Virus record (IMG/VR): IMGVR_UViG_3300030116_006045
Coordinates: 44,952-64,951 of that record
DNA from: an uncultured virus (IMG/VR IMGVR_UViG_3300030116_006045)
Lineage: Duplodnaviria; Heunggongvirae; Uroviricota; Caudoviricetes
DNA length: 20,000 nucleotides
Direction: 5' to 3' (one strand)
The number at the start of each line of letters is the position of its first letter. Position 1 is the stretch's first letter. The translations under genes and the position numbers were made by a program. The notes under the pieces were generated by a model. That model was given only the letters and a program-made list of their open reading frames with translations. It was not told where the DNA came from and searched no databases. Shown here one piece after another: positions 1,596-20,000 of the stretch.

Positions 1596-1756
1596 CGTGG
1601 ACCCTCACTCAAGAACATTTCAAGAGTTCGGATTAACAATTGTCTATCTATGTCTCCAGATCCACGACGTAATCCAGATAAATATACTTCTAACCTGTGT
1701 TGTAGATGCCCACAGCGAACTTGAGGCAATTCAATATGTGCCACAGGTCTTTTCAT
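1592..1756 (-). CDS. Small hypothetical protein, 54 aa (MKRPVAHIELPQVRCGHLQHRLEVYLSGLRRGSGDIDRQLLIRTLEMFLSEGPR)
   Basis: Translated by hand; not in the ORF track. ATGA overlaps at both ends (upstream Zn-ribbon stop and terL start), preceded by GGTGA. Confidence 0.75.
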   Translation of the reverse strand: MKRPVAHIELPQVRCGHLQHRLEVYLSGLRRGSGDIDRQLLIRTLEMFLSEGPR

Positions 1757-1953
1757 ATCTCATCACCCATATCTGTTTTTGTCCACCACGCTTCTGCGCC
1801 ACAGTGTTCGTTACTACATATTAGCACAGTAACTAAACCATCCATGCCCATTCGAGAACCATCAGCTTCTCCAACATACACCATGCGATGACGACAGTAC
1901 CAACAGGCGAGATTGGTGCTAATCTCTGTTATTTGTATGTTGGGCGACCCCAT
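1753..1953 (-). CDS. Small zinc-ribbon protein, 66 aa
   Basis: CWYC ... CSNEHC Cys pairs, AGGAG upstream, coupled to the next ORF. Confidence 0.75.
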   Translation of the reverse strand: MGSPNIQITEISTNLACWYCRHRMVYVGEADGSRMGMDGLVTVLICSNEHCGAEAWWTKTDMGDEI

Positions 1954-2069
1954 CTGACTCTACACTCCTGACAATACGCCCTATTTCTCATGGCTTCTTG
2001 TTTGTGGCAGATGACACAGATACATGAAACATTGGGTAAAAATACCCGTGAACCACCTAACCGCGCCAT
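1929..2069 (-). CDS. Small zinc-finger protein, 46 aa (MARLGGSRVFLPNVSCICVICHKQEAMRNRAYCQECRVRWGRPTYK)
   Basis: Translated by hand. GGAGG lies just upstream of the ATG, with CVIC and CQEC pairs. First gene of the leftward unit. Confidence 0.7.
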   Translation of the reverse strand: MARLGGSRVFLPNVSCICVICHKQEAMRNRAYCQECRVRWGRPTYK

Positions 2070-2162
2070 CAGCCTCCAATATCCTGTTGATGGTTAAATT
2101 ATTTCGGTCAAAACCAAATAGATAGCGAACATTCATCAGTCATAGCATTCGTCCGAGCTATT
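2070..2162. promoter_or_regulatory. Divergent intergenic region between the leftward terminase unit and the rightward portal/structural unit
   Basis: Only switch of coding strand in the window. AT-rich tract GGTTAAATTATTT at about 2092-2104 is TATA-like for the leftward unit. Confidence 0.55.
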
Positions 2163-3575
2163 GTGGGAGTGTGGTCTGATCTTGTTGGGCGTGTGCGTCC
2201 GACCAAAAGTGCCGTGACAGCGGATATTCCTCCTACCCCAGCTGTTCTTACACCAATTGGGACGCCTCCCACATTTGCTGCTATCGCCGGACTGACCGAC
2301 ATTTTAAAGGACACAAACAAGTTACGCACCGATACTAACTACGATAACGAGTTTGATGTGTTTGATGCGATGGTTCGGCTAGATCCTGAGCTAAACGGTG
2401 CTGTTCGTTCCGTGTCTCTTACAGGAAATAACTACCACATTCACTACGATAAGGCCAAAAACACACAGATTCGAGAAGCAATTAGAGATCTCGTAGAGGA
2501 TCTGGATTTTGATGACCTTCTTATCTCCGCTATGCGCGACTTGATGGTATATGGTAACTGTATCAATAAGCTCGTCGGTCGAGCTGGAGAAGGTATAACA
2601 AAGGTTCAGTCGCTACCTGTAAAGCAAATTACCATTCTTGATGAGCGTGACCCTTACACAGTACACAAAAGCGGTATCGCAGCTACAAAAGACGACCCTA
2701 TCATGGAAGCTGTCTTCTATCGTTTCCGCGAACAGGGCATAGATGAGATGATTTTTCCAGCTGATGAAATACTACACTTCCGTATCGACTACCGTTCTAA
2801 TTGGTATCAGGATTACTTGGGACGTCAAACATACGGTGTATGGGGCGAATCTCGTTTTACTTCGCTAAAACAGGCGATTAGAGCCAAGTATAACACAATT
2901 AACAACAGAATAGCTCTTGAGGACAGCCTTACCAAGCAATACGTCCGAATAGGAAAGGAAGCAATAGAAGGCATTCCAGATCCTGAAGAGGCCAAAGATA
3001 GGCTAACTTACATTATGGACCAGGTAGGAACCTTACTTGAAGGACTTCGGGGAGATCAAATACCCATCTTACCTCATTACGTCGAGCTTAACCATATGGA
3101 TATGAACAACGCTATCCCCGATAACAGCAATTTCCTTGATAGCATCAACGCAGACATCAGTGCTGTGCTTAACGTACCGCGTGTGGCGGCAGGTCAAGAG
3201 AAGGGTAGCACCTTCGCAGCAACCTACAATGCTAACCTATGGAGTATCATGTCGATTGAACGCCTACAAAGCGTGGTAGCAGAACGCATTCATGATCTAT
3301 TCTCAAAGCACCTGGAGCTATTAGGCATACCTCACCGCAAGCGTGATCTCCCTGAACTTACTTTCCATCCTGTTGATCAGGAATCCCCACTACATAGAAT
3401 GCAAAGAGCGCAAATCGGTATCAATTCGGGAGTGATAACTGTGAATGAAGCGCGTGATATTGTCGGCCTTAGAGACATAGCTAATGGTGATGAGCGTGAG
3501 CCTAAGCAAACAACACGCCCATCGCAAGCGTTACCTCGTCAGAATGAACAGGATGGAGCTTCAGATGTCCGTTGA
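2163..3575 (+). CDS. Portal protein
   Basis: 470 aa, GTG start. Portal-like motifs MRDLMVYGN, FPADEILHFR, YGVWGES, ISAVLNVP, GVITVNEAR. Next to the terminase. Confidence 0.9.
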   Translation: MGVWSDLVGRVRPTKSAVTADIPPTPAVLTPIGTPPTFAAIAGLTDILKDTNKLRTDTNYDNEFDVFDAMVRLDPELNGAVRSVSLTGNNYHIHYDKAKNTQIREAIRDLVEDLDFDDLLISAMRDLMVYGNCINKLVGRAGEGITKVQSLPVKQITILDERDPYTVHKSGIAATKDDPIMEAVFYRFREQGIDEMIFPADEILHFRIDYRSNWYQDYLGRQTYGVWGESRFTSLKQAIRAKYNTINNRIALEDSLTKQYVRIGKEAIEGIPDPEEAKDRLTYIMDQVGTLLEGLRGDQIPILPHYVELNHMDMNNAIPDNSNFLDSINADISAVLNVPRVAAGQEKGSTFAATYNANLWSIMSIERLQSVVAERIHDLFSKHLELLGIPHRKRDLPELTFHPVDQESPLHRMQRAQIGINSGVITVNEARDIVGLRDIANGDEREPKQTTRPSQALPRQNEQDGASDVR

Positions 3576-3980: not shown

Positions 3981-4293
3981 TTCTTTTAAGCCAGTCGTGG
4001 ACCCACTAACAGAAAGATTCGGTAATCCAGTTCAAGACGCACATTTTCAATGGACCCAAGCTATTCACCGCGATCTGGTTAATCTTCGAGATAATCACTT
4101 AGCACACATAGCTCAGGATCTCAACGGCATAAAGTCCGATGTTAAAGATTTGAGAACTGATGTGGATGAATTAAAAGATCTAAAAGATGAGGCTATGTCC
4201 ATTGTCTCTAAGTTCGGGTGGAAGATTTTACTTATCGTGATTGCCGGTCTTGGGGGTTCAGCTGGACTTCCTATAATGATGGAGGGAATGTGA
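3973..4293 (+). CDS. Coiled-coil protein with C-terminal membrane anchor
   Basis: Heptads LNGIKSDVKDLRTDVDELKDLK followed by WKILLIVIAGLGGSAGL. ATG 3973 follows GGTGA. Confidence 0.75.
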   Translation: MSDSFKPVVDPLTERFGNPVQDAHFQWTQAIHRDLVNLRDNHLAHIAQDLNGIKSDVKDLRTDVDELKDLKDEAMSIVSKFGWKILLIVIAGLGGSAGLPIMMEGM

Positions 4294-4382: not shown

Positions 4383-5932
4383 TGGAAGACCTTGATGAAA
4401 TCAAAGAAAGGGCAAAAGTTCTCGCTGAGGCAACAGGTCGTTCAGAAGAAGACGTTCTTGCTGACCTTCTTGATGACGGTGTGCTTAACGAATCCAACAA
4501 AGAAAGCAAGGATCTGGTTTCCCAGCTCAAAGAAGCAGCTGCACTGATCACTACCGTTCAGTCGATCAACAAGGAGGTTTCTGAAAACAAAGTGTTGAAT
4601 GGTGGCGACAACAAAACAGAAGTCGCTATCGAAACCACACTTGAAGGCGACATAGTAGATCGAGCTATCGAATCGGCACAGCGAAAAGCTGAGAATATAA
4701 AAAAACTGGTGGCGACTTTACTCCCTTTAGTGTTACTCGTCGGGGGCGGTGGTTCCCTCGAAATGTTCGGCGTAACCGACTTCGTAGGTTCAGAAGACGA
4801 TGGTGAATACTACGACGATACTTATGTTGAGATTTGGGGCTGTACTGATTGGAACGCAGATAATTATGATGAGTATGCAAACATGGATGATGGGTCTTGC
4901 TCTTACCCTGTTTATGGATGCACTAACGACGCTGCACCAAATTACAATTCCGATGCGACAGTAGATGATGGGTCGTGTGAACCTAACCCACCTCCACCTC
5001 GACCTGGCTGTACAGACCCCGAAGCTGATAACTACGATGAAGAAGCACAGCAAGATGATGGTTCGTGCGAATACCCTCCAGATCCAATACTAGGATGCAC
5101 CGATTCTGAAGCTGACAATTATGACGATGAGGCCACAGAGGACGATGGATCTTGCGAATACCCACCTGAACCCGTTTATGGCTGCACAGATGATTCAGCT
5201 AATAACTACAATCCTGAAGCAACCGAAGACGACGAATCGTGTGAATACGACCCTGAACCTGAATGTGAGGTTGAAATCCATAATCACTACCGAGGACACG
5301 TAGCAGACGATGATGAACAGGATGCTATCTTAGTAGCCTTTAGAGTTCATCCAATAGATTGTGAAGGGGAGACAATTGAAATTGATATTGATATGCACCC
5401 TCCAGGTGAAGATGATGAGGTGGACTACCATCACTACATAACTGTCAGTGGAGACAATGATACTGTCGTTTCTCATGTTTTTGATCACGTTGCTGTTGGA
5501 GTGTGGGTTCCCCGTATCACAGCGATAATTGATGATGAGCAATTAGAGCGCGTGTGGTTTTGGTCGATAGAGGTTGTAGAGCAAACGTGTGAGATTAACC
5601 TATATGGTATCAACATAGGCACTAACAACACATCTGCTGTCGTGTTTTATGATCTTGATTGTGGCACAGAACAAAACGATCTCGATGGCTACAATGTGTC
5701 TGTACAGTTCCTTGTGTATGCTGTGAACTCAACCGATGACCCCATCGAGTATAACACCTCTTTACACTATATTGAAGGCTACGAAGATGACACACAGATG
5801 CTACGCCTAAGTAATTTTACTGATGGCAATACAACACACTATGATTTCTATTGGTATGCCATATGGGAAGATGCAGATGGTGAGCAACAGTTCATCGAGC
5901 GGAAGTGGTTGAATAGGGAGCTATCCCCATGA
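4382..5932 (+). CDS. Membrane-anchored acidic protein with five GCTD...DDGSC repeats and a probable glycosylated beta-rich C-terminal region
   Basis: N-terminal helical region, one hydrophobic segment (LVATLLPLVLLVGGGG), five Cys/Asp repeats, and 8 N-x-S/T sequons in the last ~160 aa. Confidence 0.85.
   Translation: MEDLDEIKERAKVLAEATGRSEEDVLADLLDDGVLNESNKESKDLVSQLKEAAALITTVQSINKEVSENKVLNGGDNKTEVAIETTLEGDIVDRAIESAQRKAENIKKLVATLLPLVLLVGGGGSLEMFGVTDFVGSEDDGEYYDDTYVEIWGCTDWNADNYDEYANMDDGSCSYPVYGCTNDAAPNYNSDATVDDGSCEPNPPPPRPGCTDPEADNYDEEAQQDDGSCEYPPDPILGCTDSEADNYDDEATEDDGSCEYPPEPVYGCTDDSANNYNPEATEDDESCEYDPEPECEVEIHNHYRGHVADDDEQDAILVAFRVHPIDCEGETIEIDIDMHPPGEDDEVDYHHYITVSGDNDTVVSHVFDHVAVGVWVPRITAIIDDEQLERVWFWSIEVVEQTCEINLYGINIGTNNTSAVVFYDLDCGTEQNDLDGYNVSVQFLVYAVNSTDDPIEYNTSLHYIEGYEDDTQMLRLSNFTDGNTTHYDFYWYAIWEDADGEQQFIERKWLNRELSP
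4838..5248 (+). repeat. Five tandem coding repeats GCT(D/N)xxAxNYxxxAxxDD(G/E)SC
   Basis: GCTDWNADNYDEYANMDDGSC, GCTNDAAPNYNSDATVDDGSC, GCTDPEADNYDEEAQQDDGSC, GCTDSEADNYDDEATEDDGSC, GCTDDSANNYNPEATEDDESC, with Pro-rich linkers. Confidence 0.95.
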
Positions 5933-6366
5933 GCCATTATCAGCTCATGAATGAATCCGAAATCAAAGACAAAGTTAGCTCGTTTCAATGCCCTGTCGAT
6001 AAGGGCTACCCTCAGCTGGTAACACCACTAACTTACTATACTCGCGTAGATGGTGACGAAGTTCTTGCTTACTCATCCTTTTCTGATCTGGGTTCGTTCT
6101 ATTTTGTAGGCAACACCTACGTTTTACCAAAGAATAGAGGACAGGGTATCTATGGGGATCTTCTTACCAATCGCAATAACCACTTGAACGATAAGCCCAA
6201 GATTACCATTGTTAATCCCATAGAGGGTACAGACATAGATATTCTGCACAGGCAAGTCGCCAAGCAAGGAGGGGTCAAGATTAACCTATATATTCAAGTG
6301 GCGGATTTTATGTCGAAGGAGTTATACAAGGAGCTAAGTGATCTCCCCATCTATTTTTATCGGTGA
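5929..6366 (+). CDS. GNAT-family acetyltransferase-like protein
   Basis: Acetyl-CoA binding motif A pattern YVLPKNRGQGIYGDLL, 145 aa, ATGA overlap with the upstream gene. Confidence 0.7.
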   Translation: MSHYQLMNESEIKDKVSSFQCPVDKGYPQLVTPLTYYTRVDGDEVLAYSSFSDLGSFYFVGNTYVLPKNRGQGIYGDLLTNRNNHLNDKPKITIVNPIEGTDIDILHRQVAKQGGVKINLYIQVADFMSKELYKELSDLPIYFYR

Positions 6367-6370
6367 TACT

Positions 6371-7459
6371 ATGCCAAATCCAAAACCAGGTGAAGAACGC
6401 GACGATTACATGCAACGCTGTATGCGTGATGGTAAGATGAACAAGCAATTCCCTGACTCGAAACAACGCTATGCTGTGTGCGTCCGATATTATGATGAAT
6501 CACCAGAGGCTTCGGAGGAAACAATGGACGCGACTGACTCATTGGGTATTGACCCTAATCACGGATATGATTTGGATTACATACGCGAAGCTGAAGCTGA
6601 CGAGCTTTGGGAATCTATTATTGAAGCATCACATGAAGGCTCAGTGGTTTTAGATGAGGCTACTGTTGAAGCCCTGCAATACGGACGACCAGGAAAGAAT
6701 GATCCACGGAAGACACCAGCTAAACCAAGTGAACGTCGCAAGGGGTCTAAGAAAAACAAACCTGGGTCTGCTAAGAAACCTAACAAATCTATTCAAGTTT
6801 CAAAAGGAACAGAATCAAGGCTTCGCAAACTCATGACTGAACACAACGCGAAAGTCAAGAAGAAAGGTAAAGGATCTAGGGCAGGTATGGGCGCACTCAA
6901 GAGTGTGTTTCGTCGCGGTGCTGGTGCTTTCAGCCGTAGCCACGCCCCAGGCATGGGACGTACAGGTTGGGGAATCGCAAGAGTCAAGGCATTCCTATAC
7001 CTTCTTCGTAATGGACGACCTTCCAACCCCAATTACAAGCAAGACAATGACTTACTTCCTAAAGGACATCCGAGAGCAAAGAAAGCTAACGTAGATGAAG
7101 ACGAGGAAGTGTCTGACTTTGTTATTCTGTCAGCATCTGCTGTATATCAAGGTAGAAAGGTCACACTAAATAAACCATTTAGAACTCCTAAAGGTCCGAA
7201 GAAGTTTTCTGTTTATGTTAAGAATGAAAAGGGTAATGTCGTAAAGGTGAACTTTGGTGATCCCAACATGGAAATAAAACGTGATGACCCCGCAAGACGC
7301 AAATCATTTCGAGCAAGACACAATTGCGATAACCCTGGCCCAAAGACAAAAGCTCGTTACTGGAGCTGTAAAATGTGGGAACGATCTAAAAGTGTAAAGG
7401 ACTACACAAGTTCTGAGGATCTGGAGAATCAAATCGCAGAACTTCTTTCAGAAGATTGA
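6371..7459 (+). CDS. Multi-domain basic/acidic protein, probable internal head protein (DUF5824-like and DUF6321/DUF5754-like modules)
   Basis: ATG 6371 after GGTGA. Modules MPNPKPGE..YMQRCM..QRYAVC; LKSVFRRGAGAF..WGIARVKAFL..DNDLL; KVTLNKPFRT..VNFGDP..RRKSFRARHNC..ARYWSC. Family names are from recall, not searched. Confidence 0.75.
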   Translation: MPNPKPGEERDDYMQRCMRDGKMNKQFPDSKQRYAVCVRYYDESPEASEETMDATDSLGIDPNHGYDLDYIREAEADELWESIIEASHEGSVVLDEATVEALQYGRPGKNDPRKTPAKPSERRKGSKKNKPGSAKKPNKSIQVSKGTESRLRKLMTEHNAKVKKKGKGSRAGMGALKSVFRRGAGAFSRSHAPGMGRTGWGIARVKAFLYLLRNGRPSNPNYKQDNDLLPKGHPRAKKANVDEDEEVSDFVILSASAVYQGRKVTLNKPFRTPKGPKKFSVYVKNEKGNVVKVNFGDPNMEIKRDDPARRKSFRARHNCDNPGPKTKARYWSCKMWERSKSVKDYTSSEDLENQIAELLSED

Positions 7460-7486: not shown

Positions 7487-8941
7487 ATGTCCGATGACTG
7501 TGACTGTGGTTGTGCTGATTGTGATGATAATGTCATAGCAGAAGAAATGGGTAAAGACATCTTTGATAATCCAGGCGAGGCTATGCGTCGTTCTAAGGAA
7601 TTAGGATGCGATAAGGTTCACACCATGCGTCGTGACGGACAGACACTTTTCATGCCTTGTGGCACTCATGATGAATATGATAGAAAAATGTCTGAAGAAG
7701 CTGGTTATCATGATGATGATGAAGACGAGGACAAAAAGAAAGCTGAAGATGATGATGAAGAGGAATACGACGCATCAGCTAACTGTGAGTCCGGTTATTG
7801 TCCTCCTGGTTTTGAGTTTGTAGCTGGAGAATGTATTACTGTAACGTGCGATCTGGATATTCAAAGTGTTGAGGTTATAGCCGAGGCAAACACAGGTATC
7901 AATGTAATCCGAATATCTGGTGTAGCGTTCACAAATGGCTACAATAAGAATGGGTGGCGTCTTACTAAAGAAGCTGCAGAAAACACTGTTGAACAAATGG
8001 TCGGAGCCGATCTTACTCTAAATCACCCTAAGCAAAAGGGTGTTGGCTTTTCTCGAAACATGGATGGTGGAGTCGATGAAGCCGTTGTTGGTATTGTTAC
8101 AGAAGCCAAGATGAACTATGGTGATGAAGACGACGAGAAATACTCTGTTCGATTCAAGGGTGAGGTGTATAGAGAGGAATTGTTCGCAGCTCTTGAGTCC
8201 GGCTTATGGCTTCGTGAGGGCTATGGTGTGTCTATCGGTGGTACTGGAATACCTACCGCTACCGAGGAAGATGAGAAGGGTCGAAGGCGCATGACTTTTG
8301 GTGGAGATTTTAGCTTTGATCACCTCGCAATCGTTCACAAACCCGCATACGCAGACGCTAAGATAGACAAAGTGGAGAAGGTTGAGCTGGAAATGCCCTC
8401 AGCCTCCACCTTGATATATCAAACGGGTGATGGCTCAATTCAACCAAAGGGTGAAGAGAACATGAGTGACGAAATCGAAATGGTCGAAGCATCGGAAGCA
8501 TCTGATGATCTGGCCGCTATTCAAGAACAATTGGTATTAGCCAATGCACGAATCGCTGAGTTTGAAGCTCAGGCTATGGAAGCTGCTGAATCAGAGCGTG
8601 TTGCTCTTGTTGAGAAGGCAAGCGAGCTTGGTCTTTCCGGTCACGACGACTTTACCACTGAAATGTTAGAGCGCGTGATCTCATCCTGGGAAGCATCCCG
8701 ACCTGAGCCACGCGAAATGGCTCCGGCTACTCCAGCAGCTCCTGAAGCTGTTATCGAAGCGAGTGAAGAGGTTCCTGAGAACCGCTCAGTCGTTGCTAAC
8801 TACCTGAATGGGGAACTTGTTGAGTCCTCACAGGATCTTTACAGTCGCGCATGGAACGCTTGGGCTTCCGCCTGGAATGGAACTATTTCCGGTGGAGATG
8901 AACGCGCTCCAATGTTCGATGAAATCAAGGAAAAGGTGTGA
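7487..8941 (+). CDS. Prohead (maturation) protease fused to C-terminal scaffold
   Basis: HK97/herpes-type protease features ISGVAF..NKNGW, LTLNHP (His), GVSIGG (Ser), DHLAIVHKPAY, followed by an acidic coiled-coil C-terminus. Upstream of the capsid gene. Confidence 0.85.
   Translation: MSDDCDCGCADCDDNVIAEEMGKDIFDNPGEAMRRSKELGCDKVHTMRRDGQTLFMPCGTHDEYDRKMSEEAGYHDDDEDEDKKKAEDDDEEEYDASANCESGYCPPGFEFVAGECITVTCDLDIQSVEVIAEANTGINVIRISGVAFTNGYNKNGWRLTKEAAENTVEQMVGADLTLNHPKQKGVGFSRNMDGGVDEAVVGIVTEAKMNYGDEDDEKYSVRFKGEVYREELFAALESGLWLREGYGVSIGGTGIPTATEEDEKGRRRMTFGGDFSFDHLAIVHKPAYADAKIDKVEKVELEMPSASTLIYQTGDGSIQPKGEENMSDEIEMVEASEASDDLAAIQEQLVLANARIAEFEAQAMEAAESERVALVEKASELGLSGHDDFTTEMLERVISSWEASRPEPREMAPATPAAPEAVIEASEEVPENRSVVANYLNGELVESSQDLYSRAWNAWASAWNGTISGGDERAPMFDEIKEKV
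8462..8941 (+). CDS. Nested in-frame scaffolding protein (MSDEIEMVE...), 159 aa
   Basis: In-frame ATG right after the protease domain, preceded by GGTGA and by TTGATATATCAA at 8411. Analogous to lambda C/Nu3. Confidence 0.6.
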   Translation: MSDEIEMVEASEASDDLAAIQEQLVLANARIAEFEAQAMEAAESERVALVEKASELGLSGHDDFTTEMLERVISSWEASRPEPREMAPATPAAPEAVIEASEEVPENRSVVANYLNGELVESSQDLYSRAWNAWASAWNGTISGGDERAPMFDEIKEKV

Positions 8942-10318: not shown

Positions 10319-10534
10319 ATGAGCTGGCTTGAGCGTGTTTATGCCCAGGAAGGGCTGCAATACGTTGCTGTCCCAGATCCTGAACCTTCTATGGATTATT
10401 CGGGTCTAAAGGTAGCTGAACTACGTGATTTATTAGAAGCTCAAGGGCTTCCTACTAACGGTCGAAAGGCCGATTTGATTGCTCGTCTTGAAGAGAATAG
10501 TGAAGTGAGTACAGATGGCGAAGAAGAAGAGTAA
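10319..10534 (+). CDS. SAP-domain small protein
   Basis: YSGLKVAELRDLLEAQGLPTNGRKADLIARL matches the SAP consensus. Confidence 0.85.
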   Translation: MSWLERVYAQEGLQYVAVPDPEPSMDYSGLKVAELRDLLEAQGLPTNGRKADLIARLEENSEVSTDGEEEE

Positions 10535-10868: not shown

Positions 10869-11254
10869 TGGCTGTTACCACAACACAGATTCGTGATTTA
10901 CTTAACAGACCTACGGGACTTGTTGAAGGAACAATCACAGAATACATCAACATGAGGGATCGTGAAGCTACTAAGATAGCAAGAACTAGCTCATACAACA
11001 TAGGAACGGATCACCAAGTCACTACGGATCTAAAAGAAGATTTCATCAAGGCTGCTGTATGCGTCGATTGTCTTATCGTATTGATTGATACTCTCCCATC
11101 GGATCTGGAGCCAAATCAACGCACTGTCAGTGATACACGGTTTCGAGAACAATTGAACGCATTCAAAGAGCGCATGGCTACTGCCCGACAGAACATAGCA
11201 GAACCTAACGCAGCTGCCTTCGCTACGGATTCAACAGCGACCAGGCAGGAGTAA
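10868..11254 (+). CDS. Head-tail adaptor-like protein (SPP1 gp15/HK97 gp6 type, putative)
   Basis: 128 aa helical protein starting VTTTQIRDLL, positioned after the capsid gene. Confidence 0.6.
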   Translation: MAVTTTQIRDLLNRPTGLVEGTITEYINMRDREATKIARTSSYNIGTDHQVTTDLKEDFIKAAVCVDCLIVLIDTLPSDLEPNQRTVSDTRFREQLNAFKERMATARQNIAEPNAAAFATDSTATRQE

Positions 11255-11256
11255 GC

Positions 11257-13173
11257 ATGACTGATTTTTATTGGGTAGCTACCGGCACTACCGCTACTGA
11301 CGCAGCAGCGGCTGGTGGGTGGAGTACAAGCTCAGGAGGTTCAGCACAGTCGTCTTGGCCTGGCTCAAGCCCTACAACCACAGATAATTTTTATTTCGAT
11401 GCTAATTCAAACGCCCCTTGTATATGGGGCATCGCTTCTGTGGAATCCATAGTATGTAGCCTTACATCTCTTTTCACAGCTGGTATTCAGCTTAAAGGAA
11501 ATGTGGCCCTAAAAGGATTACAATTGAACACACCTCTTACTCTCAACAGTGGAACCGCGTCTTCAACACTCACATTCAGCAGTCCTTTGAGTGGCTTTCG
11601 AGATTCAGCATCAAAGGATAGATTTGTTTTGAATGGTCAGAAGGCTAACGTCACAGGAGACATTACTTACAAGTTTCAAGGAAACGTGTACTTAGATGAC
11701 GGCCCATATCAAAAGATAGATCTCAATAGTGGTATCTTACTACCTGGTTACAATGTTCCTACAAGCACTGTTCATGACAATGCTGATGACGGCTTTGCTC
11801 ATGTTAAGGGGGCATTCATAACATCAGGTGGAACAGTGTCCAGATCCACAGTAGTTCCTAACCGAGCTTTAGATTCAGCTAAGAAGTTCAAGATCGATAC
11901 TACCACATTCACTTATGCACATACCAGCTTTGATGCTATGCTGTCCCAATGGTGGTTTAGAGGTATTACTTTGCCTGTGTCCGGCTCTACGACATATGGT
12001 GGTGGTTCTCCAGCTTTCCAAGCTAAACACCACTCGATTGTAATCTTCGCAAGCTCGGCTGGTGATAAAGTAACAATTACATCGGGTCTTACTCTCGACT
12101 GTTATGATCTGGAGATTCGTGCTGGTGCTAGATTAGTCAGCTCATCAAACGGAGATCCCGTAACAATCCGCACACAAAAGCTTCCCACGATTAACGGTGG
12201 CTGGTCTTTCGAGCCGGTAGCATCGTTTGAGTTCGTATCTCCCAGGAACAACCCTGTCCTTCCTATCGTTCGTGGCGGAACAGGACTGAAGACCATAGGA
12301 ACAGCTGGGCAGGTATTGAAAGTCAATAGCAGTGCTAACGCTCTTGAATATGGAGCTGTCTCCGGTGGATCTGGAACAGTAACAAGTGTTGCTACCTCAG
12401 CCCCAATCACAGGAGGAACAATTACAGCAACAGGTACAATCGGTATCAGCGCGGCAACGACAAGTGCCGCTGGATCTATGTCTTCGGCTGATAAGACCAA
12501 GTTAGACGGTATCGAAGCCTCGGCTGACGTTACCGATGCAACAAACGTGGCGGCGGCAGGAGCGTTAATGGATTCAGAGCTTACAGATTTAGCTGGCGTC
12601 AAAGGTGTAACAATATCTACGCTTCAAGTAAAGCCAAGTGAGGGTGCATTCGCAAATGGAGACAAAACTAAACTCGATGGAATAGCTGCTAACGCTACTG
12701 CATACGCTGATGCTAACGCACAACAAGCATCTCTTGGTGTGGCACTAACAACAGTGACGCTTGGCACAACCGTTAGCGGTTTTACTTCGGGTGCATACAC
12801 AATCGCACCCTTGAACAACGTCGTGAAAGACGTAACAAGTGCGTGGGATGGCTCAGGATATTACTTTACTGCACCCGCCGATGGGATCTATCATGTTACT
12901 TTCAATGCCTCTATACAAGGACTTACCACCTTATCACACGTTGCTATCACTAGATTATACAAAGACACAGGCAGCGGATTTAACTTCATAGCATCTGGAA
13001 GCACCGCCAGACAAAGTGGTGCTGTGGCAGTAGGAAATGTAACTTTAGCCCTAAATACTGGTGATAAGTTAGCACTATATGTTTATCATGATGGGGGTTC
13101 CAGTAAGAATCTTCTTGGTGATAACATAGCACCAAATTACACAATGATGTCTATTAGGATGGTGGGTCTATGA
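11257..13173 (+). CDS. Fibre/adhesin with C-terminal C1q-like domain
   Basis: N-terminal FYWV..WSTSSGG..DNFYFDANS; fibre motifs LPIVRGGTG, GTAGQVLKVNS, GTVTSV, ADKTKLDGI (twice); C-terminal YFTAPADGIYHVTFNAS..LNTGDKLALYV. Confidence 0.8.
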   Translation: MTDFYWVATGTTATDAAAAGGWSTSSGGSAQSSWPGSSPTTTDNFYFDANSNAPCIWGIASVESIVCSLTSLFTAGIQLKGNVALKGLQLNTPLTLNSGTASSTLTFSSPLSGFRDSASKDRFVLNGQKANVTGDITYKFQGNVYLDDGPYQKIDLNSGILLPGYNVPTSTVHDNADDGFAHVKGAFITSGGTVSRSTVVPNRALDSAKKFKIDTTTFTYAHTSFDAMLSQWWFRGITLPVSGSTTYGGGSPAFQAKHHSIVIFASSAGDKVTITSGLTLDCYDLEIRAGARLVSSSNGDPVTIRTQKLPTINGGWSFEPVASFEFVSPRNNPVLPIVRGGTGLKTIGTAGQVLKVNSSANALEYGAVSGGSGTVTSVATSAPITGGTITATGTIGISAATTSAAGSMSSADKTKLDGIEASADVTDATNVAAAGALMDSELTDLAGVKGVTISTLQVKPSEGAFANGDKTKLDGIAANATAYADANAQQASLGVALTTVTLGTTVSGFTSGAYTIAPLNNVVKDVTSAWDGSGYYFTAPADGIYHVTFNASIQGLTTLSHVAITRLYKDTGSGFNFIASGSTARQSGAVAVGNVTLALNTGDKLALYVYHDGGSSKNLLGDNIAPNYTMMSIRMVGL

Positions 13174-13716: not shown

Positions 13717-14240
13717 CTTACTACTGTTCAACCGCAGACGTAGCTCAACGCTTAGGTCTTGATGCAGCTCAACGCACCAGATCCGCAAGTCGATTAGGTA
13801 GTGTGATCCGTAGAGCTACTGTTGAAATCGATTCCTGTTTTCGTAACTACGGTCGTGATGCACCCTCCCGCGAAACAGCTTCTTCGACGTTAAATGGCGG
13901 AGTTAGTGCTGGTGCTACTACTATCACACTCGCAAGCGGAACGGGCTTTAGCAACGCAGGTAACGGTAACGTCGATGGTGATTCATTCAAGTGGACTGGT
14001 AAATCTACTAACGACCTTACAGGTGTTACTGGACTTAGCGCGGATCACGCCACTGGGGTCACGGTCGAACAGGGTGAGTTCGCTCATGTTATGCGCGAGG
14101 TATGTGCTGACATCGCTGCAGGTATGTATCTTCAAGATGAAGCTGCTTTTTCAACAGAAACAGCTATTCGCGCTCCGATCTATACCCAACGTGGCTACGA
14201 ACTTCTATATCGAACAGCCAAGCTTGGGACGGTGGATTGA
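13713..14240 (+). CDS. Head-tail connector-like protein (Mu gp36/gp6 type) with inserted beta module
   Basis: YCSTADVAQRLG..IRRATVEIDSCF..MREVCADIAAGMYL helical scaffold interrupted by TLNGGVSAGATTITLASGTGF..HATGVTV. Confidence 0.7.
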   Translation: MTYYCSTADVAQRLGLDAAQRTRSASRLGSVIRRATVEIDSCFRNYGRDAPSRETASSTLNGGVSAGATTITLASGTGFSNAGNGNVDGDSFKWTGKSTNDLTGVTGLSADHATGVTVEQGEFAHVMREVCADIAAGMYLQDEAAFSTETAIRAPIYTQRGYELLYRTAKLGTVD

Positions 14241-15076
14241 TGGCAAAGCAACACTATCAAACATTCAAGGCTAAGAACCTCAGTGGAGGATCTAGCAACA
14301 TAGGAACAAGTAGGCGTCAGGGTCTTCTTCGTTTCACAGTGGACTTCAATAGCCGTGAGCTGGAAATGAGCCTCGGACGTATGGCTCAAGAGGGGCAAGA
14401 TGTCCTTACTCGATTTTCTGTATTGGCTTTGAGAAGGGCCATGAAGGAAACACAGGAGCTTTTACTTGAGCAAGAAATAGGCGATGGTCGTACAGCCCGT
14501 GATGTTCGTAACGATGCTGTCGCTGGATCGAAAAATATCTATGTTCGTTTAGCTGAATCTCTTCGTGTAACATCATCGAATAATCGAGCAAGAATCTATT
14601 CAGCACCTTATCCTACCGGATATGTCTCTCAATCCCGACCTGGGAAGGTAAAACTCGCACGTATTCATGCCGGAGGTTTAGATGAGTTCCCGTATTCTGA
14701 GAATCTTCCTATGTATGTGAAGTCATCAATAAGATACGCTGCATTTGATAGGGCTAATAACCCGACAGCTCGCGGTAGAACACACGCTCAAACAAGCGGA
14801 ATGAAAATGGCCGAGGAACACCCAGGATTCTCAAAGACAGATTTCTTAGGTTATGCGGAGCGGGTTTATGCAGACATATTCAACGAGGAACTATTCGACT
14901 ATATTTTTAACAAAAGTGAGTTTAGACGTATTTTTAGTAGGGTTATTGCGTCTAAGGGTACTGATGGTAAGATGGATGGCTACCTTCGAGACATTGTTCA
15001 CAACCCAGGAACAAAGCATGAGTATGTAGAAAAGAAGCAAGCGTTTAGAACATATAGAAGAAACAGGAGTCAGTAA
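14240..15076 (+). CDS. Tail completion protein (HK97 gp10-like, putative)
   Basis: Basic protein between connector and terminator, with LAESLRV, ARIHAG and HPGFSKTDFL motifs. Confidence 0.55.
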   Translation: MAKQHYQTFKAKNLSGGSSNIGTSRRQGLLRFTVDFNSRELEMSLGRMAQEGQDVLTRFSVLALRRAMKETQELLLEQEIGDGRTARDVRNDAVAGSKNIYVRLAESLRVTSSNNRARIYSAPYPTGYVSQSRPGKVKLARIHAGGLDEFPYSENLPMYVKSSIRYAAFDRANNPTARGRTHAQTSGMKMAEEHPGFSKTDFLGYAERVYADIFNEELFDYIFNKSEFRRIFSRVIASKGTDGKMDGYLRDIVHNPGTKHEYVEKKQAFRTYRRNRSQ

Positions 15077-15078: not shown

Positions 15079-16158
15079 ATGGCGGTCGCACCTTTTACTA
15101 CAATTTGGTCGAGTCGTATAGATGGGGGAGATCCCACAGACCCACCAGGCTCACAGAACACAGCTTTCACAGGAAGTGCTGGGTCAGCTGACGGTAAGAA
15201 TTGGAAGATCAATAGTAGCACAGGATCTGGCTACTACTCACTTACACCTACTACTACTGCCTACACAATGTTCATCGGCATTTCTTACACTAACGCGAGT
15301 GATCTCCCCGCTGATGGGACAGTTCTCGCTGAGTTGGACAACGGCACAAAGAAGGTTCAGCTTCAGGCTGATGGGACAGCTACCGGACTAAAGCTCGTAG
15401 GCGCAACAACACAGTCGTTTGGCGATCTGGATCTAACTCGAACAGAGGTTGATTCGTTACCTACTTCTGTTCGTATCACTCTTGACGCAGCTGGTAACGC
15501 GAAAGCCTATCTGTTTGAGATTATAGAAGGTGATGATGGTAACGATCTGACTTTAGCTGTTGCGGGTTCTAGCGGTTCAAGTGCAACAGCAAAGTGGGGC
15601 AACAATGACGGAGAGGTAACTTGGCATACCACTTACCTATGTACAGCTGGAGCGTTCAATCCTGATGAGATTTCTATTGCTGACTATACTACACAAACAC
15701 TCATCCAAACCGCATTCTCTGTTATCGAGACACTAAAGGATAGTTCACGATTTCATCTAAAGTCAGTCGATCCAGGCTCTATCTATTATGGTTATGATCT
15801 CAGCTCACAAATGATGACCCGCACAGTGCTACCAGCTATCGTAGTTCTTGTTGAACGTATAGACAGCCCTGATATGTACGCGCTTGCTGGTGTTGCCGCT
15901 GAATACACCTTTAACGTAAGAATCATGGTTGTTACAAAGGGAATCGACTACAAGAACGCATATCGTCAAGGTTTGGATCTGGTCGGTGAGATAATGGACG
16001 AGCTTTACGCTAAGACAGGACTCAAAGCATCTGTGGACTCTCTTACAGCGCATCAGACCCGCCTTGATAGTCGAATGGACCCCGATGAACAGATTAGTAT
16101 TCACGACATATCACTAACATATATGAAAAGAATCGATCTCCATCGTCGCTCACCTTGA
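15079..16158 (+). CDS. Tail terminator-like C-terminal domain fused to an N-terminal beta-sandwich
   Basis: C-terminal ~150 aa (LPAIVVLVE..YTFNVRIMVV..LDLVGEIMDELY..HDISLTY) fits the terminator pattern. Immediately before the tail tube. Confidence 0.55.
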   Translation: MAVAPFTTIWSSRIDGGDPTDPPGSQNTAFTGSAGSADGKNWKINSSTGSGYYSLTPTTTAYTMFIGISYTNASDLPADGTVLAELDNGTKKVQLQADGTATGLKLVGATTQSFGDLDLTRTEVDSLPTSVRITLDAAGNAKAYLFEIIEGDDGNDLTLAVAGSSGSSATAKWGNNDGEVTWHTTYLCTAGAFNPDEISIADYTTQTLIQTAFSVIETLKDSSRFHLKSVDPGSIYYGYDLSSQMMTRTVLPAIVVLVERIDSPDMYALAGVAAEYTFNVRIMVVTKGIDYKNAYRQGLDLVGEIMDELYAKTGLKASVDSLTAHQTRLDSRMDPDEQISIHDISLTYMKRIDLHRRSP

Positions 16159-16165: not shown

Positions 16166-16195
16166 CCCGAATAGTGATTCGTTATAGGTGAGTCC

Positions 16196-17254
16196 ATGAC
16201 AAACGTGTTAGCGAGCCGATATGTAGCGTTCATCAAGGAATCGACTTATGGTACAGCGGTAGCCGCAAGTTCGAGTTATAAAATTGGTGAAGTGGATGAT
16301 GAATCATTTACTCAACAGTTCGACGTTCTAAACCGAGCGAGCATGAGCCATTACGGAGCTACCGCAGCTACTGAAGGTGTCTTTAGCTCATCCGGTGATA
16401 TTAACGCGCCTGTAATCCTCGATGATTTTACTTTGATTTGTTTCTTTGAAGCCTTTGGTGTGGACACTTACAGTGGCGGATCAAAGCAACATCTTCTAAG
16501 CGAAACAACCGATGAAGATAATCTAAACTCCTACACTATTCGTGTGGGCCGTGAAAACAAAGAACACGTTTTCACAGGTATGGTTCTTGATTCTATTTCC
16601 CTTAGCGCGAACATCAACGAGTATGCTATGTTCAACGCTTCTTTCGTTGGATGCGGTGAAGCAGGAACAGCATCTCTTCAAACACCTGGCTCCAGTTTCC
16701 CTAACTTTGAGGGATCAGAAGCTTTGCACTTCTCTCGCGCATTCGTTAGGTTTGGTAACGCGGCTACGGACACACAATTTTCAAAGGCAATCACCAGCTT
16801 TGAAGTAACAATCAATTTAGGTCGTGATGTAGAAAACGCCAGATCGCTTGGAGACAGCACTTACGTCCGAAAGCCAAACCCTACTCTAAGAGAGATTAGT
16901 GGTAGCATAGAGTTCAACCGAGCTTTGTATGCTACTTCTCAAGCTGACGACCCTGGTGGCACAGCATCTGGTTCTCCAACATACGATGAGTTAAGGCAAG
17001 GTCTTGACAGAAACGGAGATAGCGCAGGTCAGGCAGCACTTTCGATTCTCCTTGAAGAATCAGGTGGCTCTAACTACTTCAGGATGGATCTCTTCAATGT
17101 TCATTTCGAGGCTCCTGAAGCTGCAGTAAGTGGTCGTGATGGACAAACTATGAGTGTTAGCTTCGTAGGTCTTTATGATTTAGGAGACAGCAACGCTATG
17201 GCTCGGTGCTTATTTGAGAAGGACGGCCTCAACGCTAATGCTGCATACACATGA
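16196..17254 (+). CDS. Major tail tube protein
   Basis: KESTYGTA, SYTIRVG..FTGMVLDSISLS, REISGSIEF, MSVSFVGLYD are siphovirus tube motifs. GGTGA RBS. Confidence 0.85.
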   Translation: MTNVLASRYVAFIKESTYGTAVAASSSYKIGEVDDESFTQQFDVLNRASMSHYGATAATEGVFSSSGDINAPVILDDFTLICFFEAFGVDTYSGGSKQHLLSETTDEDNLNSYTIRVGRENKEHVFTGMVLDSISLSANINEYAMFNASFVGCGEAGTASLQTPGSSFPNFEGSEALHFSRAFVRFGNAATDTQFSKAITSFEVTINLGRDVENARSLGDSTYVRKPNPTLREISGSIEFNRALYATSQADDPGGTASGSPTYDELRQGLDRNGDSAGQAALSILLEESGGSNYFRMDLFNVHFEAPEAAVSGRDGQTMSVSFVGLYDLGDSNAMARCLFEKDGLNANAAYT

Positions 17255-17267
17255 TGAGGTGATTTAG

Positions 17268-17480
17268 GTGGCAGTAGGCGACGGCGGAATCAAGATAGTC
17301 GATAAGACAAAGATTACAGTAGCCTCTCTTGCTACTAACTTAGCATCACTTCAAACTGATCTCCAAACATTCCTTCGTGGTAGCACTTTTGCTAACAACG
17401 ATATTATCTATCAAATAATCTACGAGCGCAATAAGAACAATAACGATGTAATGGTTTATGTCGTATTTGAAGATCAGTAA
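17268..17480 (+). CDS. Hypothetical protein, 70 aa
   Basis: GTG start with GAGGTGA RBS, between tube and chaperone genes. Confidence 0.7.
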   Translation: MAVGDGGIKIVDKTKITVASLATNLASLQTDLQTFLRGSTFANNDIIYQIIYERNKNNNDVMVYVVFEDQ

Positions 17481-17521
17481 TAGTCGGCCATGAGCCATAA
17501 GTAAAAGAAGAAGTGAAAAAA

Positions 17522-17866
17522 ATGCCAGTGAAGAGAAAAGAAGTCGAACTAGACGATGGACGCAAGATCTGGGTGCGGCAAGCATCCGGTATGGACAAAC
17601 TCAAAATCGAGGCCAAGCAGGGGCGAGTACTCCGCAAGGTCCGTCACTTCGGAGTGGACATGACAGCATGGACCGAAGAACAACAAGATGAGTTCTTGGA
17701 ACTATGTGATGCGGAAGGCTGTGGCTTTACGGATCAGGTAGAAGCTTGGGTTCCTAAGTGTGTTCTCGACGATGTTGATACTGACTCCCTGACAAGTGAA
17801 GAACTTGTCCGAATCCTAAACGTGATTCGAGGGGAGGACACGGATGATGTTGTCCCTTTGGCGTAA
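17522..17866 (+). CDS. Tail assembly chaperone (gpG analogue)
   Basis: Located between tube and tape measure. Ends just after the slippery heptamer. Confidence 0.75.
   Translation: MPVKRKEVELDDGRKIWVRQASGMDKLKIEAKQGRVLRKVRHFGVDMTAWTEEQQDEFLELCDAEGCGFTDQVEAWVPKCVLDDVDTDSLTSEELVRILNVIRGEDTDDVVPLA
17854..17860 (+). promoter_or_regulatory. -1 programmed ribosomal frameshift site C CCT TTG
   Basis: X XXY YYZ in the correct phase, two codons before the TAA. The -1 frame is open to 18147. Confidence 0.75.
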
Positions 17867-18147
17867 TCTATCAGGTAGCCCCGATCCTGTGTTCGACGTT
17901 CAAGGGGATTCTTCCTTCGGATCTGGTGGACAGATACGATGGGCCGTTAGGTCGTTGGAAGATGGAGTTAGATGTAGCAGTAGCTGGAGAAATAGCAGAC
18001 CAATTGAACGAGTCAGCTCAGTCCAACAAGAAAGGAGCCAACCGCAACAAAGCTCGCGGTGCTGTGGCTCGTCGGAAACAGCGCAGAAAGCTGTATTCGG
18101 GAGTCGAAACGAGTGATTCGCTTAAGAGTATGATGGAGGGAGATTGA
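17854..18147 (+). CDS. Frameshift extension of tail chaperone (gpT analogue)
   Basis: The -1 frame reads PFGVIYQVAPILCSTFKGILPSDLVDRYDG...MMEGD and includes track ORF 17926..18147. TGATG-coupled to the tape measure. Confidence 0.7.
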   Translation, partial: PFGVIYQVAPILCSTFKGILPSDLVDRYDGPLGRWKMELDVAVAGEIADQLNESAQSNKKGANRNKARGAVARRKQRRKLYSGVETSDSLKSMMEGD

Positions 18148-20000
18148 TGGCACGTGTTGGTGGTTCCCGTGTATTCTTCGACGTTATTGGTGTGATGAAC
18201 ACAGCCAAGATGGTCAAAGATGCTCAGGACTCCGCCACAGTGATTCGTGCGTTATATCTTGATGCCTTTGAAGGGATCACAGGTTCTTTAGACGGAATAT
18301 TTGGAGGCGTAACTCAGGCGGTAGAAGCCCTTCGTGATCCCGCTATGGAGCTTGGGGAATCACAGATTTTCTTCCGTAAGTTCTTCGACTTCGACGATGT
18401 TGCTGCTTATGAATCACGTATTATGGATCTAGGAGTGGCCTTTGGGTTCACTGCATCCGAAGCACTTGAAGCCGGTGCAAAGATGGCGCAGCTCGGTGGT
18501 CAGATTGGTGGTCAAGGAGCTGTTGAAGGTCTAACCGAAGCAAGTATGTTATTCGGGTTAGTCGGTGGTATGACTACTGAAGATGCGGCAACAAAGCTGG
18601 TTTCGTTAGGTCAGCAGACAGGTTTCTTCTACGAAGGGACTACAAGAGAGGCACNNNNNNNNNNTCACTTATGTCGATGGATGCTGAAGAGCAACGACAA
18701 ATTGTTCTTCGTAATTCACTTCATGCGATGGATCAGCTAAACACTGTCGAAAACAACAGCCTCGCTACCATGTCGCAATTATCTGAGGCTATGGATAACT
18801 TCTCGGCGTCTGCAACCATTTCTAATGAGTCGCTTGCTAACCAGGCAGCTCAGGCCGCTATCTTGATTCAGTCAGGGGAAAGAGCATCTAAAGCTGGTCG
18901 TGGTTTGCGTACCATCTATACTAGATTAGCCACCGACACAGGTGGTGCTGCCACAGCACTTCATGAAGTCGGTGTAGCAACAACGGACGCATCAGGAGAG
19001 CTTATCGGTCTAAACGACATACTCACACAGTTACACGCCGTAGGGTTTGCCGAAATGGGTTCTGGTCAACAGCAGTTTATTGCTCAAACAGTAGCCGGAA
19101 CAGATCACGCGACACGTTTCCTCAAATTGATGGAAAGTTTTGATGAACTTATGGAATTGTCTGGTAAGGCTACCGAAGGTTCAGCGTCAGCTTTGGACGA
19201 GTTCTCTAAAATGACAGACAACGCTACTTTCGCACAACGTCAGATGCAAGCGGCCACTGAAAGCAACGCTCAGATCATAGGACAGGAACTACTACCAGCT
19301 ATCACAAACGCTGATGGTATGGTCTTTTCTTTACAAGAATCGTTCAAGGATCTCATCACAGTCGAAGAGGATCTGGATGGTATATCTGGAACTTTTGATA
19401 GGTTGGGTGCTTCTCTTGTTGGCGGAGTAGCAAGAACAGCAATTATGTCTGGTGGACTATACGACATCGCTGGTGGTGCTTTCGAGGCATTCCTTAACAT
19501 TCAATCTCTAATGGTATCAATTCAGGTATTCCGCTCAATCGATAGACAAACAAAGATGCTATCCGCTCAAGCAACTAAAGAGTTAGCTCAGGCAGAAGGC
19601 TTCCATGTGAATATGCTTAACCAAGAAATGCAAGCGTATATGAGAATGTCTCCAGCGGCGAGAGCTAACATCCAACTTTATGTTTCTGAAATAGACGCAC
19701 TTCGCACATTAGGAACGGTTCGCGGTGGTTCAGCTCAAGCAAAAGTCCAAGCAACAAATATGGAAAAGGGTGCTTTGAGTGCATTGATGCCGTTCCTAAG
19801 TAGTGAATTAACTCTTGAGCAACAGCTGGCAATAGCAAGACAGGTGAATACAGGTAAGACAAAGCAGAAATCTCTTGTAATCATGGAAGCAGCTAATGTT
19901 ACTCATCACAATGTAAGGGCTACACAAATGGATGGCAGGGCAACGATGGAAGCAGCACACGCTTATGCTGCAGCCCAAGCACCAATCAAAAACCTAACAG
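18147..20000 (+). CDS. Tape measure protein (TP901-type core), interrupted by N gap, truncated at window end
   Basis: After the gap the frame starting at 18665 reads ..GERASKAGRGLRTIYTRLA..GVATTDASGELIGLNDILTQL..IAQTVAGTDHATRFLKLM.. and appears to stay open to the end. Confidence 0.9.
18655..18664. other. Assembly gap (10 N)
   Basis: Run of N that shifts the tape-measure reading frame. Confidence 0.95.

Follow-up and report, generated by a model that had tools for sequence, protein, structure and literature searches.

The locus considered here raises the question of why one short, non-palindromic word should recur throughout the genes of a virus. The window, that is the whole stretch of 20,000 nucleotides that was analysed, corresponds to positions 44,952 to 64,951 of the uncultured virus record IMGVR_UViG_3300030116_006045 (IMG/VR; Caudoviricetes). 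The word is the octamer GGATCTGG, with the reverse complement CCAGATCC. An original prediction, made from the letters of the window, had described it as highly iterated and had taken it for a signal at the level of the DNA and not of the protein. The iteration is confirmed and its reading as a DNA-level signal is supported; the main new property is the even, kilobase-scale spacing of the copies, which was determined on the whole genome of the virus.

Enrichment of the octamer and its imposition on the coding DNA

The window contains 15 copies of GGATCTGG, and all the coordinates and strands predicted for them were exact. About 0.5 copies had been expected by chance; the mean of 200 dinucleotide-preserving shuffles was 0.56 and the maximum 4, so that none reached 15. 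The nine further copies of the 7-mer GATCTGG were also placed correctly, resulting in a total of 24 copies of the 7-mer against 2.71 expected, with 8 in the richest shuffle. In the whole contig, a single sequence of 64,951 bp of which the window is the last 20 kb, the octamer was found 53 times (23 copies on the + strand and 30 on the - strand). It is the commonest 8-mer of the contig by a wide margin, the next unrelated 8-mer having 20 copies. The observed/expected ratios with Markov models of orders 0 to 4 were 32.7, 23.8, 18.5, 25.1 and 11.3, respectively. The lower values at orders 5 and 6, 2.7 and 1.3, are due to the training of these models on 6- and 7-mers that come mostly from GGATCTGG itself. 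The mean density is about one copy per 1.2 kb, inside genes. The four genome modules were alike in this respect (0.75–0.88 copies per kb), and the uniform density includes 14 kb of small genes without a homologue in the two complete sister genomes, G004 and G005.

GGATCTGG is a sharply defined word. Of its 24 single-base neighbours, 21 were at or below expectation. The neighbours above expectation were CGATCTGG (14 vs 2.3), TGATCTGG (9 vs 3.6) and GGATCTAG (11 in open reading frames (ORFs) vs 3.2; 13 in all). The last one is the sole enriched transition neighbour and corresponds to a C-to-T change at the second C of CCAGATCC; the 7-mer GATCTAG contains 17 of the 47 copies of CTAG, which is scarce in this genome.

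An assembly artefact was ruled out by independent sequences. A Tara Oceans scaffold of 11,906 bp matches positions 42,688–54,593 of the genome at 99.916% identity and keeps 10 of 10 copies of the octamer, with none of its 10 mismatches falling on a copy. Contigs from a run of another study were identical over pieces of 1.7–3.3 kb, and three later runs contain relatives that are 3–10% diverged. The enrichment is thus confined neither to the window nor to one assembly. A repeat element was also rejected, as the flanks of the 53 copies are unrelated: the preceding base is G in 1 of the 53 and the following base is A in 28, and no other preference was detected.

The relation of the word to the genes was determined with 95 ORFs, called by a greedy longest-ORF rule, which form a crude set covering 94% of the contig. 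Fifty of the 53 copies lie in ORFs and are distributed over six frame/strand classes, and three are intergenic. The coding copies read Gly-Ser-Gly in 16 cases and x-Asp-Leu-x in another 16, one copy is in the third sense frame and 17 are in the three antisense frames; the readings listed originally (GS, DL, PD and RS) were those found in this frame analysis. Compared with the 50 copies observed in coding DNA, synonymous codon shuffles within genes gave 5.01 ± 2.05 copies (maximum 13 in 1000 shuffles, the one ORF with a run of Ns being excluded) and codon-order shuffles 2.74 ± 1.62. The enrichment persisted against Markov models (18.5–32.7-fold at orders 0–3) and against synonymous codons, and the two codon shuffles rule out a protein motif or codon usage as the cause. 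The spelling of the peptides was equally skewed. GGA TCT GG is used for 16 of 22 Gly-Ser-Gly, where codon usage predicts about 1.4, and GAT CTG for 16 of 22 Asp-Leu in the G..G context, though CTG makes up 11% of the Leu codons. Codon usage is thus overridden by the word, which is imposed at the level of the DNA.

Positions where a synonymous change would allow GGATCTGG are called permissive here. This genome has filled 50 of its 113 permissive positions, six scrambled control words fill 0–10% of theirs, and the two sister genomes fill 0 of 67 and 0 of 64 for GGATCTGG. The higher number of permissive positions in this genome than in the sisters indicates that amino-acid choices have been recruited as well; with the 7-mer, 178 such positions were counted here and 107 and 106 in the sister genomes. 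The peptides at the sites were identical to the orthologs in 4 of 21 cases with G005 and 3 of 21 with G004 (baselines 0.19–0.26), and this genome differs at 7 of 10 sites where the relatives agree (baseline 0.59–0.66). An excess of amino-acid change over random windows was not found at the 21 of the 50 coding copies whose genes were aligned in all three genomes. The central claim of the prediction, a signal in the DNA and not a protein motif, is supported by the shuffles, the codon spelling and the filling of the permissive positions.

Even spacing of the copies

The first 89 bases of the contig are found again at position 64,660, which indicates that the assembly is circularly permuted and that its unit is 64,659 bp long. 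On this circle the coefficient of variation (CV) of the gaps between the 53 copies was 0.551, compared with 0.974 ± 0.124 for random placement, and all of 5000 simulations gave higher values. The longest gap measured 3,045 bp instead of the expected 5,559 bp (P = 0.0006), and one gap was shorter than 300 bp where 11.3 were expected. When the copies were drawn solely from the 113 permissive positions, the comparison was 0.562 vs 0.918 ± 0.112, again with 0 of 5000 draws as low. Of the unused permissive positions 46% are within 300 bp of a used position, compared with 4% of the used ones, which shows that opportunities were left empty when a copy was already close. A close copy removes the advantage of another within about 300 bp, or adds a cost to it, and copy-free stretches of more than about 3 kb are not maintained.

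The regularity is specific to the octamer. Ten control words, other abundant words of the same genome, had CV values of 0.75–1.34, and the value for GATC as a whole was 0.87. GGATC, GGATCA and GGATCT outside GGATCTGG showed no regular spacing in this genome. The 38 variant sites keep a distance from the canonical copies (mean 509 vs 397 ± 48, P = 0.013), and the CV of all 91 sites pooled was 0.61; the variants could be either working variants or decayed copies.

The word works irrespective of its orientation. The observed/expected ratio was 11.2 on the sense and 8.3 on the antisense strand, the order of the strands was random (27 runs vs 27.0 ± 3.6), so that a Chi-like orientation bias is absent, and the copies of either strand taken alone were not more evenly spaced than random subsets drawn from all copies. 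Between window positions 1656 and 15230 (genome 46,607 to 60,174) 12 consecutive copies alternate in strand, which may be chance since the strand order is random genome-wide. Imposition against codon usage, independence of orientation, exclusion at short range and the lack of long empty stretches together characterise a duplex signal that acts in cis over a limited range.

Sister lineages, methyltransferases and the genome

The prediction had proposed that the enrichment be sought in relatives as well. Enrichment of GGATCTGG was absent from every relative sampled, and a different word of the same kind was found in the sister clade instead. Of 50 loci found by their terminase, 49 had no copy and one had 2; none was present in five related records that were searched in full and that include two complete genomes. 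Among 80 metagenome loci found via a structural protein, at least 2 copies were present only in the near-identical Tara scaffold, and a TerL profile search of genome contigs gave no relative. The terminase tree places a clade of 11 loci as the sister of this genome, with a support of 100/99. The tree does not tell which word, GGATCA or GGATCTGG, was the ancestral one.

The word of the sister clade is GGATCA. It occurs 132 times in G005 and 102 times in G004, where synonymous shuffles gave 45 and 48, respectively, and exceeds the Markov-3 expectation about 3-fold in some 20 loci of the clade. The spacing scan covered every 5–9-mer with at least 18 copies, between 1,777 and 2,881 words in each genome. 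In G005 the greatest regularity was shown by GGATC (n = 167, CV 0.53, z -6.3), followed by GGATCA (z -5.6). In G004, GGATCA (z -4.5) ranked second just after TCGAA (z -4.7), and in this genome sub-words of GGATCTGG came first (z -3.3 to -3.8). The scan of four more distant genomes gave no word below z -2.6, and their top words were not enriched. Each of the two sister lineages thus has one GGATC-based word that is both enriched and evenly spaced, and no other genome examined has such a word. No positional homology was seen between 21 GGATCTGG sites and GGATCA in the sisters.

The same viruses avoid short palindromic sites, as counted in the whole records G004, G005, G006, G007, G008 and G010. 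CTAG is missing from both sister genomes (121–133 expected) and is reduced to 47 copies in this genome (201 expected). GATC, AGCT, TCGA, ACGT and GTAC all have 0 copies in the distant G006, as has CCGG in G004. In the sister clade GGATCT/AGATCC was found 0–1 times against about 27–30 expected, AGATCT, GGATCC, TGATCA and CGATCG were at or near zero, and GATC is tolerated in some contexts only. The 6-bp words RGATCY, TGATCA, CGATCG, CTCGAG and GTCGAC are avoided likewise among these viruses. With 109 copies of AGATCC, 21 of AGATCT and 29 of TGATCA, this genome has relaxed most of the site avoidance of the family, though CGATCG stays at 0, and GGATCTGG is built on GGATCT, the hexamer that the sister clade has eliminated. 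Among the compared genomes it is also the only one with a Mom-family gene.

Of the accompanying genes that had been suggested, methyltransferases were found, and no nickase family was recognised among the scanned ORFs; the same holds for HUH, restriction endonuclease and MutS/L/H families. Three methyltransferase genes lie side by side, adjoining the polymerase gene, at 13,108–17,395 of the genome and hence outside the window. They encode an N6_N4 family enzyme with TSPPY, a C5 enzyme and an N6_N4 enzyme with TDPPY; we take the two motifs to suggest N4-cytosine and N6-adenine methylation, respectively. Both sister genomes have the cassette in common with this genome. Of the four distant genomes, which lack a spaced word, three have a single methyltransferase and one has none. 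The enzymes of the cassette align in their catalytic parts only, and the adjacent PolB aligns from end to end with 64% identity. In five GGATCA genomes the variable region of the C5 enzyme is co-linear, with 59–86% identity over its full length. In this genome it is about 100 amino acids shorter and unalignable to those five.

A gene for DpdA (7-deazaguanine transglycosylase family) is located directly beside the Mom-family gene at genome 24,008–25,415 (L002:4011-5415). G005 has DpdA only, and G004 has neither of the two genes, yet it has a spaced word. No preQ0 synthesis genes were recognised in the scanned ORFs of this genome, and therefore a hypermodified base may be made from a host precursor.

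Other words with unusual distributions were noticed in parallel. CTCGAA is unusually even in this genome (G000), G004 and G005 (z -2.5 to -3.6), CCAGGC in G005 and G004 (CV 0.51 and 0.35), and so are the AGCT-words AGCTGC and AGCTCA in G004 and AGCTCC in this genome; GGAGCTCC has 15 copies in G004 vs 1.0. The further evenly spaced words may be targets of the other two methyltransferases. Distant relatives have iterated 8–9-mers of their own, one word per lineage: ATTGTAAC (50 copies), GTTACATAA (43), CGGCCAAAA (15), CCTACAAATA (14) and TGACGCTTGCGA (12), in the loci L027:5263-11559, L031:13494-17304, L026:13874-16739, L044 and L046. The first three words were ruled out as the same phenomenon by their clustering in AT-rich stretches of 2–4 kb. 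All five are grouped near the terminase, in stretches of 2–8 kb that are mostly AT-rich, and are probably regulatory-site arrays of an early-gene region. L089, a 17.9-kb fragment of an unrelated marine virus found via the DPPY-type methyltransferase, has 68 copies of the palindrome TGCGCA vs about 4 expected from length alone. Its TCTGCGCA occurs in 25 dispersed copies, 22 of them in ORFs, and is not even (CV 1.0); GATC and CTAG are absent from the fragment.

Judged by its genes, the contig belongs to a tailed virus, with the large terminase subunit at window 108–1595 and with a portal and a tail tube protein. A protein of 2,783 amino acids gave no Pfam or PHROG match, and its homologues in both sister genomes adjoin structural genes; the look-alikes of a conserved protein of 438 amino acids were viral hypothetical proteins only. 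The replication block contains a family B DNA polymerase, an RFC-like clamp loader, a sliding clamp (weak match), a nuclease with ERCC4 and helix-hairpin-helix domains and a PD-(D/E)XK exonuclease, together with a weak Sak4-like ATPase match below the cut-off of Pfam. By their matches the replication genes are of archaeal type. The nearest named relatives of the polymerase are haloarchaeal tailed viruses (about 24% identity), which makes an archaeal host likely. All the public runs that hold this virus are marine metagenomes, and a megablast of the window against phage records gave no nucleotide match to deposited phages.

The contig ends split one gene (window 18144–20000 and genome 1–984): the two end ORFs of 198 and 310 amino acids match the start and the end of one 943-amino-acid protein of the sister genomes. 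A run of 10 N is located at genome 63,606–63,615 (window 18,655–18,664), and contigs from two public runs lack 14 bases where it stands. Three further proteins were recorded as well: a 71-amino-acid SAP-domain protein among the structural genes (window 10319–10531), a 107-amino-acid protein with a zinc ribbon and a helix-turn-helix at genome 19,778–20,101, which adjoins PolB and is kept in both sister genomes, and a 502-amino-acid Mre11/SbcD-like exonuclease at genome 43,503–45,011 (window 1–60 is its end), found in this genome only. At window 6671–7337 the contigs of all four runs stack to a summed depth of 36–172, compared with about 4–15 in most other bins, and the stack shows many loose contig ends. 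This high-depth part is covered by a 373-amino-acid ORF (window 6338–7459; PHROG 7595, weak DUF5754/DUF5824). The depth and the loose ends indicate a module common to many other organisms in the samples. The positions of the octamer and its variants in the window are presented in Table 1.

Table 1. Copies of the octamer, of the 7-mer variant and of the transition variant in the window.
Feature	Position in window	Strand	Remark
GGATCTGG copy	1656..1663	-	exact match
GGATCTGG copy	2498..2505	+	exact match
GGATCTGG copy	2976..2983	-	exact match
GGATCTGG copy	4510..4517	+	exact match
GGATCTGG copy	5078..5085	-	exact match
GGATCTGG copy	7417..7424	+	exact match
GGATCTGG copy	10373..10380	-	exact match
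GGATCTGG copy	11101..11108	+	exact match
GGATCTGG copy	11840..11847	-	exact match
GGATCTGG copy	12367..12374	+	exact match
GGATCTGG copy	13777..13784	-	exact match
GGATCTGG copy	15223..15230	+	exact match
GGATCTGG copy	15975..15982	+	exact match
GGATCTGG copy	17919..17926	+	exact match
GGATCTGG copy	19369..19376	+	exact match
7-mer variant GATCTGG (first base of octamer not G)	842..848	-	
7-mer variant GATCTGG	4072..4078	+	
7-mer variant GATCTGG	6085..6091	+	
7-mer variant GATCTGG	7850..7856	+	
7-mer variant GATCTGG	8507..8513	+	
7-mer variant GATCTGG	12106..12112	+	
7-mer variant GATCTGG	15424..15430	+	
7-mer variant GATCTGG	16839..16845	-	
7-mer variant GATCTGG	17566..17572	+	
Variant GGATCTAG (one transition from GGATCTGG)	281..288	-	genome 45232
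Variant GGATCTAG	2379..2386	-	genome 47330
Variant GGATCTAG	6872..6879	+	genome 51823
Variant GGATCTAG	14288..14295	+	genome 59239
Variant GGATCTAG	18425..18432	+	genome 63376

Candidate explanations and known systems

The explanation that we tentatively favour, and to which we give somewhat less than an even chance from the sequence data, is that GGATCTGG is a recognition word under selection that works in either orientation. It would probably be a methylation mark that the virus itself writes, and would serve a process of limited distance. The lineage would keep the word at its density, regular and genome-wide, by positive selection. Most probably GGATCTGG would be the target of the virus's own sequence-specific DNA modification enzyme, and the first candidate writer would be the C5 cytosine methyltransferase of the cassette beside the DNA polymerase. 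The copies would then act as evenly spaced epigenetic marks for a process in cis, for example for a repair or defence enzyme that tracks along the DNA from or up to a mark, and even marks would leave no part of the genome far from one. The methylation of the word, the enzyme responsible and the reader of the mark are what we infer from the patterns described above. Deamination of 5-methylcytosine at the second C of CCAGATCC would produce GGATCTAG, and the excess of this variant is in agreement with such a change, which is suggestive only. The broad list of functions given with the prediction has been narrowed but not reduced to one: the cassette with its swapped variable domains favours a modification site, the even spacing argues against a purely neutral by-product of repair bias, and strand-specific signals of the Chi or nick type are disfavoured by the equal enrichment of the two strands.

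Several observations weigh against a methylation mark written by the cassette. The link to the C5 enzyme compares one genome with five and is one evolutionary contrast, hence a single event. The architecture of the SPPY-type enzyme varies within the GGATCA genomes, so that the domain swaps do not map cleanly onto the words and this enzyme is a poorer candidate writer. Solved structures match the catalytic cores of the three enzymes only, and their specificity cannot therefore be predicted. DpdA and the Mom-family protein are alternative writers. In 93 loci found via the three methyltransferases, GGATCTGG had at most 2 copies. The excess of GGATCTAG could alternatively be a tolerated degeneracy and not a product of deamination. 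About 37 of the 87 excess copies of GGATCA in G005 could compensate the missing GGATCT and GGATCC; such compensation can explain neither the remaining excess of GGATCA nor the spacing.

A more specific form of the methylation reading, viral self-marking, is possible and is rated clearly lower. A lineage-specific methyltransferase would mark the asymmetric word, and the word would be spread evenly so that a DNA-tracking enzyme, viral or of the host, meets a mark within about 1.5 kb. An exchange of domains could give such a system a new word, as with GGATCA in the sister clade and GGATCTGG here, and the entire genome, amino acids included, would then be rewritten.

The strand symmetry and the even spacing would fit any duplex-binding factor of limited range. 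The word might accordingly be a site at which a virus-encoded DNA-binding protein binds or nucleates without any modification, for example to coat, bridge or organise the genome, and the zinc-ribbon and SAP-domain proteins are the candidate binders. We consider this doubtful, as neither of the candidates is tied to GGATCTGG, BLAST gave no match for the SAP protein in the sister genomes, where a spaced word occurs too, and the clade-specific feature that co-occurs with the spaced words is the methyltransferase cassette.

According to the parts of PMC4390886 that deal with alternative highly iterated words in cyanobacteria, these words track the specificity of the resident methyltransferases, and Elhai argued a HIP density near 1 per kb from the roughly 1-kb range of methyl-directed repair. 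His model, proposed there for such alternative words, is a mutation/repair ratchet driven by the methyltransferase, and it would make GGATCTGG a neutral by-product with no function of its own. It is in agreement with the single density of the word in genes of all kinds and in lineage-specific genes, and with the amino-acid divergence at the sites, which equals the background (4 of 21 identical to G005). A ratchet predicts random filling, yet the copies repel each other at short range and long gaps are missing (0 of 5000 simulations), and no mismatch-repair genes were recognised among the scanned viral ORFs, which renders a purely neutral origin unlikely.

Even less probable are sites of a nicking enzyme that would introduce regular single-strand interruptions as in phage T5, with GGATC as the core and the nick region in the following bases. 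The asymmetric GGATC core is common to the words of both lineages, the variable bases are just 3' of it, and the near absence of close copies would avoid double-strand breaks from nicks on opposite strands. The nicks of the T5 type are on one strand and the copies of GGATCTGG on both, and a nickase, HUH or restriction-endonuclease family is what the scanned ORFs did not reveal.

A host signal copied by the virus, such as a Chi-like site, an uptake-type sequence or an iterated word of the host itself, is very improbable, as the two orientations are equally enriched and this enrichment is uniform over the genome, the sister clade from similar marine metagenomes uses another word and never GGATCT, and the replication genes are of archaeal type; we know of no RecBCD or AddAB in archaea. 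According to PMC3784561, some lambdoid phages strongly over-represent the host Chi octamer, but the Chi sites of phages concentrate in the region from the origin to the packaging site, and a virus with recombination and exonuclease genes of its own, such as this one, belongs to the class where Chi is selected against.

Among the known systems, avoidance of restriction sites is extreme in the same virus family and is of the opposite sign for GGATCTGG, which is over-represented. The fixed nicks of phage T5 likewise represent a short signal repeated along a virus genome. They are few and confined to one strand. GGATCTGG has 53 copies distributed over the two strands, and these are known from the sequence alone. 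The GATC marks of E. coli Dam and MutH lose their usefulness beyond about 1 kb, as stated in part of PMC4390886, and this is the kind of limit that the spacing suggests; unlike there, no MutS, MutL or MutH was recognised in the virus, the host is probably an archaeon, and the word is an asymmetric 8-mer and not GATC. Lambdoid-phage Chi is similarly an octamer over-represented in a virus and read as a self signal for a tracking enzyme. As described in PMC3784561, it is oriented, concentrated from the origin to the packaging site, owned by the host and favoured in phages without recombinases. GGATCTGG, in contrast, is orientation-free and of uniform density in a virus with its own recombination genes.

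A search of a limited literature collection did not turn up any virus genome reported to carry an iterated word at even spacing, the Chi paper being the only related one, and a text search for GGATCTGG gave, among the matches listed, unrelated topics and none on a genome-wide signal. HIP1-type words have been known for thirty years without an agreed function. The genomes in which they were studied are cellular and large, which makes it difficult to tell writer, reader and selection apart. A signal of this kind in a 65-kb virus adds the clues of strict evenness, of two words on a GGATC core and of a cassette with swapped domains. If a tracking nuclease or repair system indeed reads the marks, this would be a new way for viruses to label their DNA as self, and the combination of enrichment and even spacing would be a sequence-only signature for finding such systems in metagenomes. 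Self-marking, if true, would be a viral, orientation-free analogue of Chi or Dam-GATC.

The closest known kind is the HIP word family of cyanobacteria. As in HIP1 (GCGATCGC), which occurs near once per 1.1–1.2 kb, the word is a GATC-cored octamer in tens-fold excess; it lies inside genes in all frames, and has a putative link to methyltransferases, evidence of selection and a non-random distribution, as far as HIP1 is described in parts of PMC4390886 and PMC5861425. Against the HIP threshold of at least 15 for the genome-wide observed/expected ratio, 18.5–32.7 was determined (Markov 0–3), with a 10-fold excess over synonymous shuffles. The coding location in all frames is achieved via codon choice, and the distribution is regular. 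HIP words contain the target of resident orphan methyltransferases; the virus has three methyltransferases with lineage-specific variable domains, one of which may have GGATCTGG as its target. Palindromy and sharing across a phylum of cellular genomes were not found. GGATCTGG is not a strict member of the family, since it is non-palindromic, viral and confined to one lineage; it resides in a 65-kb virus and not in a cellular chromosome, and the sister uses GGATCA. The spacing also differs: HIP1 shows long-range periodicity in the portions of PMC4390886 and PMC5861425 that treat its distribution, and here next-neighbour evenness at the kilobase scale was observed. This evenness, and the viral setting with a word that differs between sister lineages, are what is new in a signal that is real, reproducible, strongly selected and HIP-like.

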